Position numbers and translations under genes: made by a program. From a virus (lineage: Duplodnaviria; Caudoviricetes): a stretch of DNA of 55,923 bases. The number at the start of each line of letters is the position of its first letter. Within the stretch, counting starts at the first letter, position 1. The notes beneath the pieces were generated by a model. That model saw nothing but the letters and a program-made list of their open reading frames with translations, made no database searches and had not been told where the DNA came from. The stretch spans positions 1-55,923 of the IMG/VR virus record IMGVR_UViG_3300033291_000001; one strand, given 5' to 3'. Shown here one piece after another: positions 21,059 through 26,429 of this stretch.

Positions 21059-21563
21059 TCATTTAGACTTTATAATTTTTTCTTCAACATAAAATGTATT
21101 TGTACATCTAGTAATAAGACTTGATATCTTATTGCGAGCCTTGACCCATTTTTTCTGAGAAAGATTAAATTTATTTTTAATCTCGGAAACGTTTATTTTA
21201 TCACCACTTTTATAATTTGACTGGATGTGCATGGTTATATCATCGGTTATTCCACCTCTTACATACTCAATTCTCGGTAATTGCCTATTATTAGTTCCTG
21301 ACACATTGTAATCATCGTTACTTAACTTAGATATGTATTCAATTCTCAAATTCATTAAGTTCGGCATTGGAGCACGTTTCAAGAATTTCAAAAATAAAAC
21401 TTGCAAATCCATACTTCTTAAAATCTCTCTGGAGTTTTTCGTTATGATGACTATTGTTACTCAAGTCTGCAATGTGCTTCTGCCATCTTATAAATATATT
21501 TCCACTTTTACCAATGTACTTTCTATTATTTACCTTGTTTGTTATCTGGTATATTCCTGTCAT
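21059..21563 (-). pseudogene. GIY-YIG endonuclease + wHTH-like tail, split by a +1 frameshift near 21343
   Basis: GIYQITN..KYIG..RW..H; GAG AAT TGA vs GAG ATT GAA TAC restores ELNEFEIEYISKL..YNV; fused product 167 aa. Confidence 0.75.
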
Positions 21564-21684
21564 TTATATACGCCTCCATTAATTTTATTATAACGACTGT
21601 CATTGGCCTGCCGTCACATGCCTTTTTAAAATTTTCCTTTAATTCACTATTCACCAGAAATCTGATTTGTTCATCTTTGACCAT
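21526..21684 (-). CDS. Ribbon-helix-helix regulator (paralog of 32546-32698)
   Basis: KDEQIRFLVNSELKENFKKACDGRPMTVVIIKLMEAYI; preceded by TTGCAA-17-TATACT promoter. Confidence 0.75.
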   Translation of the reverse strand: MVKDEQIRFLVNSELKENFKKACDGRPMTVVIIKLMEAYINDRNIPDNKQGK

Positions 21685-21736
21685 GTTGTCACCCCCTTGA
21701 TAATAGTATATCATACATTGCAATGGATTGCAACAA

Positions 21737-21773
21737 ATAAAAACACTCCCGCTTAATTTAGGAGTGTTTTTAT
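21737..21773. terminator. Intrinsic terminator ending the FtsK/membrane operon
   Basis: ATAAAAACACTCC-11nt-GGAGTGTTTTTAT. Confidence 0.75.
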
Positions 21774-21780
21774 AGTTAAT

Positions 21781-22794
21781 TCAAATCACTTTCTTTCTCT
21801 TGAATTTTGTACCAACCGCCTCAATACTAACCAGCCTTGACTTAACCTTTTTCCAACTGTTAACGGTTAGGTTAAATTTTTGCCTTAAATCGGAAGTTGA
21901 GATAGTTTCCCCGACTTTATAGTTAGAACAAATATATTCTTCTAACTTATTAGTTAAGTCATCAAAGTTAGAATTGTTTTTTCGTATCAGCACCTCATTA
22001 GTTAGAGCAATTGATTTATCCCAAAGCCTTTTTTTTGCAAGTTCGTCTTCGTTGCTTGGTGTTGAATCTTCTTCCGACCTAACCTGTAAATCGGTTGATA
22101 TAACCTGATTTGAATAGGTTAGGTTTTTAGACTTATCTATCTCAGCTTCCTTGTTTTTAACTGTTTTTATCCTAAACCCAACTCCTGTTTTAACCTCATT
22201 AGCTAGATTATCAGTTAGACTTAACTTATCATATTTCGTCTTAATTAATGTCCTAACTGGTTGAGTAAAAATCGCCCAACTCATATTAAGTAAAGTTTCA
22301 TTTATTCTTTTGTGTTTAATTCTCATAGTTAGATCAAAGCCAATCAATGGTAATTTAACTGCCATAATATCTAACAAAATACAAACTGACCAAGTAAAGA
22401 TAAAATTGGCAGTTAGATCAACTAACCAATTGTAAAAACTTAACGTCGATAAAAATGGAATCGCATTAAACAAATTTTCAATTGAGTTTATGTGTTCCTG
22501 TACGTAGTGACGATTTATTTCAAAAAACGTTATCGTGCCGACTATTGATACGATCATTAATATGTTTGATATTGTACTTACTAAGCTGTAATGTTGCGGT
22601 GTTTCTTTTGCAACATAGTGCTTTGTCATTGCAAGAAAAAATACTCCGAGTTGGATGACGACAAACATTCCAATCATTATGTACTTGACGCTTCCAGCAA
22701 ATGCCATGCTTAAAGGCTGTATGGTAGCATAAGTTGATACGATAGCACTTGCAATCCCTAGTAAAATAAATATTGTTGCTATTGCTTTCCTCAT
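21781..22794 (-). CDS. Multi-TM membrane protein with C-terminal wHTH-like domain (SpdB/DUF2637-like architecture)
   Basis: About 4 TM helices, charged linker, C-terminal YICSNYKVGETISTSDLRQKFNLTVNSWKKVK; ATG at 22794 after AAGGGG. Confidence 0.7.
   Translation of the reverse strand: MRKAIATIFILLGIASAIVSTYATIQPLSMAFAGSVKYIMIGMFVVIQLGVFFLAMTKHYVAKETPQHYSLVSTISNILMIVSIVGTITFFEINRHYVQEHINSIENLFNAIPFLSTLSFYNWLVDLTANFIFTWSVCILLDIMAVKLPLIGFDLTMRIKHKRINETLLNMSWAIFTQPVRTLIKTKYDKLSLTDNLANEVKTGVGFRIKTVKNKEAEIDKSKNLTYSNQVISTDLQVRSEEDSTPSNEDELAKKRLWDKSIALTNEVLIRKNNSNFDDLTNKLEEYICSNYKVGETISTSDLRQKFNLTVNSWKKVKSRLVSIEAVGTKFKRKKVI
21827..22427. repeat. Intragenic array of RGTTAG/CTAACY hexamers (13 exact copies)
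   Basis: Counted by eye at 21827,21865,21921,21942,21966,22000,22079,22117,22213,22253,22327,22411,22422. Confidence 0.75.
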
Positions 22795-22795
22795 T

Positions 22796-22930
22796 TTAAT
22801 ATTTCCCCTTTCTTTTTCTTTCCTCAAGACCGCCGATTATGATTCCAATTGCGACGACCACTCCATATTCTATGCATGTTTTTGTAAGGCCTGTCACGCC
22901 TTCAATTGCGCTTATTACACACTCATACAT
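22796..22930 (-). CDS. 44-aa single-TM protein (not in ORF track)
   Basis: MYECVISAIEGVTGLTKTCIEYGVVVAIGIIIGGLEERKRKGKY; TGATG coupling, GGAG RBS. Confidence 0.6.
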   Translation of the reverse strand: MYECVISAIEGVTGLTKTCIEYGVVVAIGIIIGGLEERKRKGKY

Positions 22931-24772: not shown

Positions 24773-24776
24773 TCCA

Positions 24777-25010
24777 TCACCCCTTCGGTATATGTATCTT
24801 TGATACTAACGCTTCAGCCACTTTCCAGACACTCGCGCCAAGACTGTCAAAAACTAAATTGTGATTTGCTGCATAAATTATAAATGCAGCGCATAACAGC
24901 CATGGTATAAACTTGCCCACTCTAAAATTTTTCCATAACTGCCTTGCTGCGGATATTAATATAACCGCGATTAAAATACCATAAATTAATGGCAATATTC
25001 CCTCTAACAT
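24777..25010 (-). CDS. Small 2-TM protein resembling TcpD-family conjugation membrane proteins
   Basis: TM-LWKNFRVGKFIPWLLCAAFIIYAANH pattern; directly upstream of FtsK. Confidence 0.5.
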   Translation of the reverse strand: MLEGILPLIYGILIAVILISAARQLWKNFRVGKFIPWLLCAAFIIYAANHNLVFDSLGASVWKVAEALVSKIHIPKG

Positions 25011-25499
25011 CTAAAACCCTCCTTTGTCGACCTCAATTTCTATATAATCAACTTCTTTCGCGTGTCTAAATTCTGGCTGATTTGTTGCATGCGGTTCTGG
25101 CTGATTAATGTATTCTTTCGGCGGATTGACAATCCGCCGTCCTGTTGGCTGTGGCGAATACTTGATCGGATCTGATACAATTACGCGTTCTTTGACAACT
25201 GTTGTGCTGGCGGAAACTCTATGCTTCCCTAATAAATAAAAATATATAAGTGGCGATATCATTATCACCAAATGTATTTCAGGATTGTATTTGCCAAAGT
25301 TTATATTGCCGTATTTAGCATCTGCCGCGGATGCCAGCATCAACGTTAATGCCATTGGTGCATACCTTGGATACCATAATACTTTTATCAATCCAGGTAT
25401 CGCATGTCTGCCATATCCAATTATGATCCATATTGCCTGTCGGCATATCCATGTGACTATGACAAACAATATAGTTAAAACACTACCCATTTCCATCAC
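25011..25499 (-). CDS. Membrane protein with P/Q-rich cytoplasmic tail
   Basis: Three hydrophobic segments; in FtsK operon. Confidence 0.65.
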   Translation of the reverse strand: MMEMGSVLTILFVIVTWICRQAIWIIIGYGRHAIPGLIKVLWYPRYAPMALTLMLASAADAKYGNINFGKYNPEIHLVIMISPLIYFYLLGKHRVSASTTVVKERVIVSDPIKYSPQPTGRRIVNPPKEYINQPEPHATNQPEFRHAKEVDYIEIEVDKGGF

Positions 25500-25722
25500 C
25501 CAACAACATCTTATTTTTTTTGCCTTCTATTGATTTAATATCTGCGTTCGCAAACACCTCATCAAATGTCCAATAAAATAAAAACGCACCAACTTGTATG
25601 CAATACCTTTTTCCGGGTTGCATGCATAATAAACGCCACCCCTTTCGGTTGCATACTTCAAGCACTTTTTCCTTACGCTCTTGTGCAGCTTGCCATCCAC
25701 ACCAATTAAATCCGATTACCAT
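25483..25722 (-). CDS. Hypothetical protein
   Basis: AGGAGGAG RBS; in FtsK operon. Confidence 0.6.
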   Translation of the reverse strand: MVIGFNWCGWQAAQERKEKVLEVCNRKGWRLLCMQPGKRYCIQVGAFLFYWTFDEVFANADIKSIEGKKNKMLLGDGNG

Positions 25723-26108
25723 GTATTACTCCTCCTTTCAAATTCATACACTGTACGTTTTACACCATTTATAAAAGTTTCTTCCTTCACTCCGCGCTCG
25801 CGTGTTATAAATTCTTTGTCGCAATTCCATCCGGACTGTTCGTTGTAGTCCGGTTGATTATTAAGATACTCATAATCTTTGTCATAATCTGGCGGCGACG
25901 GCAATGCGCGTGTATCTTTTGTACTATTTTTAAACTTGTTGATTATTGCAAAATACCCAGCGAATACGCCGACCGGAACAATTAATTCAAGCATTCCCAT
26001 ACTGCAAACTTTTGAAAACTTAGCAGCTGCCATTAGCAATTCATGCGACAAAACCGCTAAGCCGGCCGGAAATATATACTTTACCAGGGATATTTTTTTA
26101 ATTATCAT
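25716..26108 (-). CDS. 2-TM membrane protein
   Basis: Two hydrophobic segments, AAGGAG RBS. Confidence 0.65.
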   Translation of the reverse strand: MIIKKISLVKYIFPAGLAVLSHELLMAAAKFSKVCSMGMLELIVPVGVFAGYFAIINKFKNSTKDTRALPSPPDYDKDYEYLNNQPDYNEQSGWNCDKEFITRERGVKEETFINGVKRTVYEFERRSNTW

Positions 26109-26200
26109 TTGTGCTCTACGCTCCTTTCGGCTATAATTTAAGTCGTAATCTTATAGCTCATTTATTTTTTATCCTGCGATAATGTCGATCGCGGGATATT

Positions 26201-26353
26201 CTATTCTTGTCTTTCTTTTTCTTTTTCTTTTTCTATCTCTGACCGAATTAGTTTTTCAATTATTGCGTTTTGGCTACATCTTAGCTCATAAGCACGCTTT
26301 CTGAGCCATTCAAATTCATCTTGCTCAAGTCTAAATGCTGTTTGTTTTTTCAC
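26201..26353 (-). CDS. Ribbon-helix-helix regulator heading the FtsK operon (not in ORF track)
   Basis: MKKQTAFRLEQDEFEWLRKRAYELRCSQNAIIEKLI; GTG after AAGGAGG; CTATTATGTTAT direct repeats upstream. Confidence 0.75.
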   Translation of the reverse strand: MKKQTAFRLEQDEFEWLRKRAYELRCSQNAIIEKLIRSEIEKEKEKERQE

Positions 26354-26429
26354 CTCGACCCTCCTTTAATGTATAACATAATAGTATGATAACATAATAG
26401 CGTACAAATGTACATTACAATTTTGGCAC

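Follow-up and report, generated by a model that had tools for sequence, protein, structure and literature searches.

For about twenty years, annotations of phages of Bacillota have included FtsK/SpoIIIE-like genes, and the accounts consulted here (PMC4113786, PMC3853050, PMC9476937, PMC11526630) do no more than guess at their purpose, the guesses being spore entry, DNA injection, prophage induction and segregation. Here we describe an operon of nine minus-strand genes (26353 to 21781) that includes such a gene, in IMG/VR virus record IMGVR_UViG_3300033291_000001. The window that we analyzed is this whole record, 55,923 bp long and classed as 100% complete. The reading that we favor, and consider on balance somewhat probable, is that the operon builds a membrane-associated double-stranded DNA (dsDNA) pump of the FtsK/SpoIIIE/TcpA type, aimed by a detachable winged-helix subunit. 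Judged from its components, the pump would work like FtsK, SpoIIIE or TraB and yet belong to none of these families. That phages of Bacillota carry FtsK-like genes, often next to a gene of the Replic_Relax family, is known; what is new is a relaxase-less variant with a winged-helix partner.

The Streptomyces TraB/Tra system is described in PMC3583192 as relaxase-free, with dsDNA as its substrate, and the same article cites a Streptomyces plasmid-phage, pZL12, that has a tra gene. Like the TraB/Tra systems of pIJ101 and pSVH1, the window combines an FtsK-like motor with a winged helix and has neither a relaxase nor a type IV secretion system (T4SS). The layouts are also alike, in that the pIJ101 order tra-spdA-spdB-orf66-kilB places a motor gene ahead of genes for small and polytopic membrane proteins, and pIJ101 SpdB, with four N-terminal hydrophobic segments and a soluble tail, resembles a 348-aa protein of the window operon in architecture only. 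The sequence kinship to TraB that the original prediction had implied is, however, minimal: a profile of the window ATPase family reached 13.5 bits against pIJ101 Tra, in a match confined to the P-loop core (phmmer E 0.19), compared with 113 bits on a Bacillus plasmid FtsK-like protein, 95 on TcpA and 57 on Gamma gp22. The proposed kinship of the membrane proteins to Spd proteins fared no better, since all nine operon proteins gave phmmer E values of 0.17 or higher against pIJ101 SpdA, SpdB, orf66 and KilB. Further differences from TraB are that the winged helix of the window is a separate polypeptide, that no clt-like repeats were found, and that the element is a tailed phage whose host is apparently a low-GC Gram-positive bacterium.

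TcpA of Clostridium perfringens pCW3, which we considered together with the coupling proteins of Firmicute integrative and conjugative elements (ICEs) and integrative and mobilizable elements (IMEs), is the closest solved structure to the window ATPase (Foldseek 1e-18), and both are related to FtsK rather than to VirD4. The window differs from the Tcp system in having no relaxase downstream and no counterpart of TcpC, D, E, F (which is VirB4-like), G or H or of the TcpM relaxase. When all window open reading frames (ORFs) were compared with ten Tcp proteins by phmmer, the only matches were the ATPase to TcpA and a YdjM-like ORF (40319-40747) to TcpI. The 77-aa protein encoded directly upstream of the ATPase had been called TcpD-like, a description that its comparison with pCW3 TcpD does not bear out (phmmer E 0.15, 2.4 bits, in a 10-sequence set). 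A likeness of the small operon proteins to TcpD/TcpE, to Spd proteins or to Gamma gp20/21 was rejected on sequence comparison.

The pairing of an FtsK/SpoIIIE-like gene with a Replic_Relax gene in Bacillus elements (Gamma gp21-23, a pXO16-like plasmid, phage 268TH007 and RBClin15) has the same three-gene layout as the window. In Gamma and the pXO16-like plasmid, a small gene for a protein with two transmembrane (TM) segments precedes the FtsK-like gene, which is followed by an overlapping gene for a DNA-binding protein. FtsK-like genes have already been annotated in such phages, according to PMC4113786, PMC9476937 and PMC11526630; 181 phage records match the window ATPase at <60% identity, and 153 of these are Bacillus phages. 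Replic_Relax was the commonest partner just downstream of viral FtsK-like genes, accounting for 18 of 74 ORFs from 80 loci (19 of 74 with a custom hidden Markov model, HMM). Other ORFs in this downstream position (L005-L081) encode primase zinc fingers (6), integrases (3) and UvrD/RecD-type helicases; phage FtsK-like genes sit in several different contexts. Replic_Relax is treated as a PD-(D/E)XK protein in PMC3424549 and filed in the MobC relaxase superfamily in Table 1 of PMC5357655. The window partner, by contrast, has no PD-(D/E)XK/Replic_Relax part, and the operon has three more upstream genes and the 348-aa protein. From these comparisons the usual phage form looks like a coupling ATPase plus a relaxase, whereas the window clade appears to have a bare winged-helix adaptor and membrane proteins instead.

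Two further systems can be set beside the operon. As described in PMC13492992, the TraC/TraD/TraG system of pELF2 from Enterococcus faecium, which was characterized genetically in 2026 and whose authors favor double-stranded transfer, is like the window in being Firmicute, in having an FtsK-type ATPase without TM segments together with membrane proteins, and in having no nickase. Compared by description only, it is unlike the window in its second essential ATPase, TraC, its 6-TM rhomboid-like TraG and its linear plasmid. Chromosomal FtsK/SpoIIIE shares with the window the alpha-beta motor fold (TM-score 0.75 by target) and a winged helix that reads DNA. The window differs in that neither PF13491 nor PF09397 is matched and in that its winged helix is separate and of a different type.

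The motor gene of the operon (23312..24772, minus strand) encodes a 486-aa ATPase with an FtsK/SpoIIIE domain and an alpha-beta motor, as had been predicted. PF01580 was matched at 63.2 bits, against a cut-off of 24, and phrog_1358 at E 1.4e-33. In Walker A (239-246) and Walker B, 17 of 17 family sequences agree without exception at G239, G244-K245-S246 and D340-E341. A word-based search of 5.8 billion proteins returned 16 relatives at E 1e-43 or better besides the query itself, and an exhaustive profile search of 1.84 billion representatives yielded about 50 full-length, single-domain family members. PF01580 is present in all 54 wider family members scanned, and the FtsK_4TM, FtsK_alpha and FtsK_gamma Pfam domains are present in none of them. 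An AF2 model of the ATPase (pLDDT 75.4) matched TcpA best, then FtsK motor-dsDNA structures (Foldseek 4e-18; TM-score 0.71-0.76 by target over 375-394 aligned columns); EssC/EccC (4e-12 to 8e-9) and HerA (1.6e-7 or worse) were weaker matches. By its modeled fold, the ATPase is a DNA-translocase-type, FtsK/TcpA-like motor.

The ATPase family forms a clade of its own, with SH-like support of 100, in a FastTree tree of 87 rows from which rows of >900 aa and identical rows had been dropped and TraB, EssC and HerA rows left out. This clade stands apart from one that holds TcpA, TcpB, the pXO16-like plasmid protein, Gamma gp22 and all 13 Replic_Relax-neighbored viral ATPases, and apart from the chromosomal FtsK clade too; it separates the window from the Tcp, Replic_Relax and chromosomal systems alike. 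The tree thus speaks against a grouping of the ATPase with relaxase-coupled proteins, and the Foldseek ranking against one with EssC/HerA-type proteins.

The gene for the proposed DNA-reading subunit (22930..23376, minus strand) overlaps the ATPase gene by 65 nt. In the AF2 model of this 148-aa adaptor, residues 70-148 fold as a canonical winged helix (pLDDT 79-92), preceded by a disordered N-terminal half; the sequence begins with a basic stretch followed by a putative docking segment at residues 33-53. A profile of the family gave only weak, MarR-type matches among PDB sequences. The original prediction had placed a winged helix-turn-helix (wHTH) protein alongside the ATPase, and this arrangement recurs. 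There are 13 related loci in all, two of which (L166 and L170) lie on contigs that end inside the ATPase gene, so that partner position can be assessed in 11. In ten of these, the winged helix has an ORF to itself, which comes after the ATPase gene or overlaps it (L002, L003, L169, L171, L172, L163, L164 in part, L165, L167, and L168 by position and alignment only). In the eleventh, L004, the winged helix is fused to the C terminus of the ATPase, as it is in one of 150 library representatives, P0107 (E 5e-12). The relatives in viral contigs came from a profile scan, a single-protein scan of the same contigs having given none; a scan of genome contigs with a generic pattern returned mainly chromosomal FtsK and was not used.

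This juxtaposition and occasional fusion raise the question of direct binding. Indeed, complex prediction supports the 148-aa winged-helix protein as the partner of the ATPase: the pair reached an ipSAE of 0.74, and the best of three controls 0.00. The mark applied to ipSAE was reached by 58 of 80 solved complexes and by 2 of 110 mismatched pairs, and serves as a rough guide here because our own alignments were used. The prediction runs agree in at least 60% of contacts, with a partner pLDDT of 65. The predicted contact runs through residues 33-53 of the partner and not through its winged helix. In the fused form P0107, the winged-helix part alone aligns with the 148-aa protein; this fits a model in which residues 33-53 are a docking peptide that the covalent link makes unnecessary.

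Four small genes lie upstream of the motor gene, all on the minus strand, and TM counts for them and the other operon proteins were taken from hydropathy. The 130-aa protein (25716..26108) has two hydrophobic segments and a conserved C-terminal soluble tail (…EFERRS.TW). It is followed by a 79-aa soluble protein (25483..25722) with no hydrophobic segment and with invariant Cys/Trp residues in alignment (NWCG…CMQPGKRY…YWT). Next come a 162-aa integral membrane protein (25011..25499), with two strong TM segments, a possible but unscored third and a conserved cytoplasmic tail, and, directly upstream of the ATPase gene, a 77-aa two-TM protein (24777..25010), whose gene is placed like the small two-TM genes that precede the FtsK-like genes of phage Gamma and the pXO16-like plasmid. 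Downstream of the adaptor gene, a 47-aa peptide (22796..22939; 44 aa from the first ATG) has one strong TM segment; an unrelated 40-aa TM peptide takes its position in L165. None of the small membrane proteins, nor the 348-aa protein, matched anything in Pfam, PHROGs, NCBIfam or PADLOC or among Tcp or Spd proteins. The 79-aa protein had no family match in Pfam or PHROG, and searches of PDB with the 130-, 79- and 162-aa proteins were likewise negative.

The genes are nonetheless conserved with the ATPase. Five related loci of the short form, in which the ATPase has no N-terminal TM segments of the kind described below, have upstream sequence (L163, L164, L165, L166 and L170), and their gene order is kept at 40-65% identity. 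The 162-aa and 77-aa genes precede the ATPase gene in all five, the latter at 60-65% identity. The 130-aa gene is found in four (L164, L165 and L170 with 50-55% identity and L166 partially among them), as is the 79-aa gene (L163, L164, L166 and L170), for which L165 has no match.

The last operon gene (21781..22827, minus strand) encodes the 348-aa polytopic membrane protein. The original prediction had described it as a multi-TM protein with a wHTH domain. Hydropathy upholds the TM part, with four segments; the C-terminal winged-helix-like domain is a lead from the ESM Atlas (scores 0.81-0.82). Its family comprises 20 metagenomic relatives, and its N terminus is matched downstream of the ATPase/wHTH pair in L165 and L167; phage and plasmid records gave no match.

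How might the motor be held at the membrane? The window ATPase had been described as membrane-anchored. The protein itself gives no clear support for this, having a single, moderately hydrophobic helix (67-83), but its long-form relatives do. In the four distinct long-form types (L002/L003/L169, L171/L172, L004 and L167), the ATPase carries clear N-terminal TM segments, and the upstream small genes are absent. Because upstream membrane genes and a fused N-terminal TM region occur in this complementary pattern, we suggest that the short-form ATPase, too, is placed at the membrane.

All nine genes are tightly packed, with overlaps or gaps of a few bases, and the original description of one minus-strand unit closed by a terminator was correct. 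A hairpin after the 348-aa gene, within 21728-21782, is followed by a U-run (-18.4 kcal/mol, z -5.8, with none of 200 shuffles as good); this intrinsic terminator (21734..21771, minus strand) was missed by a consensus scan and detected by folding against the shuffles and by reading the sequence. The range first proposed, 21059-26420, covers the operon correctly but has too low a lower bound, running 720 bp past the operon into a separate unit. Because the gene order recurs in independent contigs at 38-65% protein identity, the operon is more than a chance arrangement. At its head is a gene for a 50-aa ribbon-helix-helix (RHH), Arc-like regulator (26201..26353, minus strand; phrog_3180 Arc-like repressor, E 7e-7; Pfam RHH_4 sub-threshold, E 0.017). 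A promoter-like site precedes it (26386..26414, minus strand; TGTACA-17-TATCAT with TG), a weak call given that such sites are no more numerous in the operon region than in shuffles. The site overlaps two copies of a direct repeat, CTATTATGTTAT, possibly an operator. Further upstream, a consensus scan found a terminator-like hairpin (26437..26456, minus strand; 8-bp stem and T-run) that would end the preceding transcription unit. Between the RHH gene and the first membrane-protein gene, a scan and reading of the sequence revealed a 29-nt palindrome (26170..26198); its 20 matches in the genome are no more than chance would give (19.2 expected).

The separate unit beyond the operon terminator (21059..21723, minus strand), called from scans, Pfam and reading, is headed by a promoter-like site (21733-21705) and comprises an RHH-like 65-aa gene (21526-21723) and a split GIY-YIG gene (21339-21563 and 21059-21412). 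The endonuclease was recognized by Pfam among the scanned ORFs (PF01541, E 2.8e-10), and a frame change splits its gene in the assembly. Over its last 45-60 residues the endonuclease is homologous to the winged-helix-like domain that ends the 348-aa protein (36% identity; E 1e-8 pairwise, 2.4e-7 by profile), so that the nuclease and the membrane protein would share one DNA-binding module.

The window is a tailed-phage genome. It encodes a Mu-like portal, a terminase, a Mu-I-like protease, a tape-measure protein and an amidase-SPOR lysin, and its smaller ORFs include Phage_tail_S, Mu gp36 and a cement protein. Among its non-structural genes are those for a RecD2-like helicase, an ERCC4 nuclease, an ERF recombinase, a ParB-like/N6-N4 methyltransferase, a DHH protein, an RNA ligase and a primase zinc finger. 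No close DNA relative was found among 50,697 phage records. A diverged relative is G001, the complete 56.6-kb phage record behind L002, which keeps the ATPase/winged-helix pair. Its terminase is 52-55% and its capsid protein 57% identical to those of the window phage, and portal, capsid and tail genes as a group are 37-57% identical. The only non-structural links found by BLAST are the ATPase, its winged-helix partner, RHH regulators, a YdjM-like protein and a primase zinc finger. These comparisons place the module in a phage lineage and not on a stray island. In G001 it heads a leftward operon closed by a primase-helicase gene. G001 also encodes, between the winged-helix partner and a 428-aa membrane protein, a 207-aa protein (L002 10055-10678) with C-terminal TM segments and, by eye, a D…E-C-K motif like that of a PD-(D/E)XK nuclease. 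If this protein is a nuclease, the relative phage would not be nickase-free.

In the window itself, the predicted lack of a relaxase, VirB4 or integrase holds for known families. When the whole record was searched in six frames, no match to Phage_integrase, Resolvase, Relaxase, Mob_Pre or Rep_trans came up, and the VirB4-like family AAA_10 gave a single match, which is sub-threshold (14.6 bits) and lies in the RecD2-like helicase. Pfam searches of 86 ORFs found no relaxase, partition (ParA, ParM, ParB-partition) or plasmid replication (Rep) family. With no par or rep gene among these ORFs, the earlier description of the element as a phage-plasmid is not supported. The custom HMM found no Replic_Relax in the window or G001 (best window ORF E 0.032; 148-aa protein E 1.4), and PF13814 did not match the 148-aa protein at E 0.1 or better. 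A 719-aa protein of unassigned family was considered as a cryptic relaxase and rejected: a PDB search gave no match, and the only ESM Atlas lead was an SF2 helicase (0.94).

Together, these data suggest the following model. The 486-aa ATPase would be the motor, presumably as a hexamer. The 148-aa protein would provide DNA recognition in trans, docking on the motor through residues 33-53 and leaving its winged helix free, and so would do the job of the FtsK gamma domain or of the C-terminal winged helix of TraB. The 130-, 162-, 77- and 47-aa membrane proteins and the soluble 79-aa protein may place the motor at the cytoplasmic membrane, a job that the fused N-terminal TM domain would do in long-form relatives. 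The 348-aa polytopic protein, with its own putative winged helix, could hold DNA at a membrane passage or form part of that passage, and the RHH protein would regulate the operon. Because no nickase is encoded, the substrate is likely to be uncut dsDNA, presumably that of the phage itself. Candidate cis sites are the palindrome at 26170-26198 and the region 33423-34368. The latter, about 950 bp, is the largest non-coding stretch of the window, a candidate origin or other cis-acting site with no Rfam match; within it lie GGTAACTTGCT, repeated perfectly three times in tandem (33610-33642), and a pair of perfect palindromes of 66 nt (34090-34155 and 34287-34354) that have a core in common.

Several observations weigh against this model. 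The short-form ATPase itself lacks a clear TM helix, and comparison of the small membrane proteins with the long-form N-terminal TM regions gave hhalign probabilities of 0.3% or less; because no homology is found between the two solutions, the membrane argument is architectural only. The winged helix is generic, its best PDB folds being of CRP/GntR type (Foldseek E about 1e-2), and it weakly matches phage 'replication initiation' PHROGs (E 1e-4). No KOPS- or clt-like recognition repeat stands out, no 8- to 10-mer is clearly over-represented in the genome, and the clt-like cluster of repeats implied by the TraB analogy was not found in or beside the operon. Deep nodes of the ATPase tree are unresolved (support 15). 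FtsK-like domains also occur in defense systems, and the ATPase matches PADLOC mad8 (1.7e-13) and SspH (1.3e-9). Although G001 encodes, in the same place, a 428-aa TM and wHTH-like protein with an architecture like that of the 348-aa protein, homology between the two was rejected, since neither BLAST nor profiles relate them. Finally, the short metagenome contigs with related loci cannot be shown to be phage.

Among the alternatives, the one that survives best, although we consider it unlikely, is mobilization: a TcpA-type coupling ATPase would hand phage DNA to the T4SS of a resident conjugative element, as in streptococcal IMEs, after cleavage by an unrecognized nickase such as the GIY-YIG protein. 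It would account for TcpA being the best Foldseek match and scoring 95 bits with the family profile, and for the prominence of Replic_Relax, a family filed among MobC relaxases (PMC5357655, Table 1), downstream of viral FtsK-like genes, including the order of small two-TM gene, FtsK-like gene and overlapping Replic_Relax gene in phage Gamma and the pXO16-like plasmid. The domain that the GIY-YIG ORF shares with the 348-aa protein could likewise link a nuclease to the operon. However, that ORF lies in a separate transcription unit, is frame-shifted in the assembly and has no BLAST match in G001. Neither the window nor G001 has a recognizable relaxase family, the downstream partner is a bare winged helix with no nuclease domain, and the ATPase family falls outside the TcpA/Replic_Relax-coupled clade. 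So many dedicated membrane proteins would also be unexpected for a mere coupling protein.

Exclusion, defense or host takeover, which we judge slightly less likely again, would have the complex act on foreign or host DNA, blocking or expelling incoming DNA or disturbing segregation of the host chromosome. In PHROG, the category given to phage FtsK-like proteins is 'moron, auxiliary metabolic gene and host takeover', and the PADLOC models noted above match the ATPase domain. Moreover, an FtsK-like plus Replic_Relax cassette is reported in PMC9476937 as an indel between two near-identical Bacillus phages. Against this, no PADLOC model matches any other operon gene. The pair is kept in two phages whose structural proteins are only 37-57% identical, and the gene order holds down to 38% ATPase identity; because both persist at such divergence, the module has a stability that would be unusual for defense or exclusion cargo.

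The operon might instead serve replication, with the winged helix as an origin-binding initiator, the ATPase as a loader or motor and the membrane proteins as a tether for replicating phage DNA, a reading to which we give a low probability. Phage phi29 provides a precedent for such tethering in its p1 and p16.7 proteins, which tether replicating phage DNA to the membrane. The winged helix has its weak matches to phrog_428 (1.1e-4) and phrog_678 (1.4e-4), the G001 module shares its operon with a primase-helicase, the Gamma homolog at the partner position is annotated 'replication initiation protein', and ORF scans recognized no classical initiator elsewhere in the window. Yet these PHROG matches span the generic winged helix only, and the fold of the FtsK alpha-beta motor belongs to dsDNA translocases, not to replicative helicases or loaders. 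The long-form relatives, as integral membrane proteins with several N-terminal TM segments, would be awkward components of a replisome. Least likely by far is a type VII-like function, in which an EssC-like ATPase and its membrane partners export phage proteins: the best NCBIfam and PDB sequence matches are indeed EssC/EccC (TIGR03928 at 7.6e-17, far below cut-off; 5fv0 at 3.8e-9), but the ATPase has a single PF01580 stretch, Pfam finds no FHA domain or WXG100 substrate in 86 ORFs of the window, the ATPase fold is closer to FtsK and TcpA, alpha domain included, and its DNA-binding partner is fused to the motor in a relative.

If the operon does encode a membrane-associated dsDNA pump, what would the pump be for? 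One purpose, which we put forward tentatively and as a minority view, would be to keep phage genomes, or move them, across a septum as it closes or into a daughter compartment. Transfer to a neighboring cell without a virion is possible but unlikely, and other kinds of DNA handling at the membrane make up the rest. The boldest form of the proposal is that a non-integrating lineage of tailed phages carries, among its conserved core functions, a relaxase-independent dsDNA pump through which its genome passes, virion-free, to a neighboring cell or compartment. Such a pump would be a Firmicute-type counterpart of TraB/Spd transfer, but its motor would come from an independent FtsK-like clade and its DNA-reading subunit would be detachable; we think it improbable that all of this is correct.

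The host is probably a Gram-positive bacterium of low GC, because the window encodes an LPXTG protein and has a GC content of 31-41%. The more specific label, clostridial, was not confirmed: relatives of the terminase, the ATPase and the 348-aa protein are all metagenomic, except for one ATPase relative at 39% identity that is labeled a Cetobacterium metagenome-assembled genome. The LPXTG-anchored surface protein, which has an Ig-like domain (13064-14089, plus strand), is encoded inside the late region on the opposite strand, as a moron. In Gram-positive conjugation, surface adhesins of the LPXTG/Ig-like kind also serve mating-pair formation. The YdjM-like ORF (40319-40747, plus strand) encodes a YdjM-family membrane hydrolase (PF04307, E 6e-20) that resembles pCW3 TcpI (phmmer E 1.7e-13) and is one of the few non-structural proteins common to the window phage and G001. 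The ends of the record repeat over 127 bp, which is most simply explained as the assembly overlap of a circular or permuted genome. No Rfam families or tRNA genes were found in the window.

Small RHH regulators head several transcription units, both in the window (21526-21723, 26201-26353 and 32546-32734, minus strand) and in L002/G001 (9828-9971 and 15144-15305). The proteins at 21526-21723 and 32546-32734 match one and the same G001 protein at 44-53% identity, and the pattern suggests that control is modular and based on RHH proteins. Three minus-strand operons are headed by copies (27946-28008, 30234-30296 and 33360-33422) of one promoter-like element, about 40-60 nt long, and the region upstream of the FtsK-like operon is unlike it. 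A 70-nt repeat, 97% identical, occurs twice (27425-27494 and 30007-30076).

Overall, the operon is a cleaner case than most phage FtsK-like genes, combining a complete phage genome, no nickase, a detachable DNA-reading subunit with predicted docking on the motor, and fixed membrane partners; the core pair is also kept in a second, diverged complete phage, G001. If phage DNA is what the pump moves from cell to cell or between compartments, the virion would no longer be the only route by which tailed phages spread. If its function is a different one, the fused and split forms would still be a tractable means of learning how an FtsK-type motor is directed to DNA in trans.

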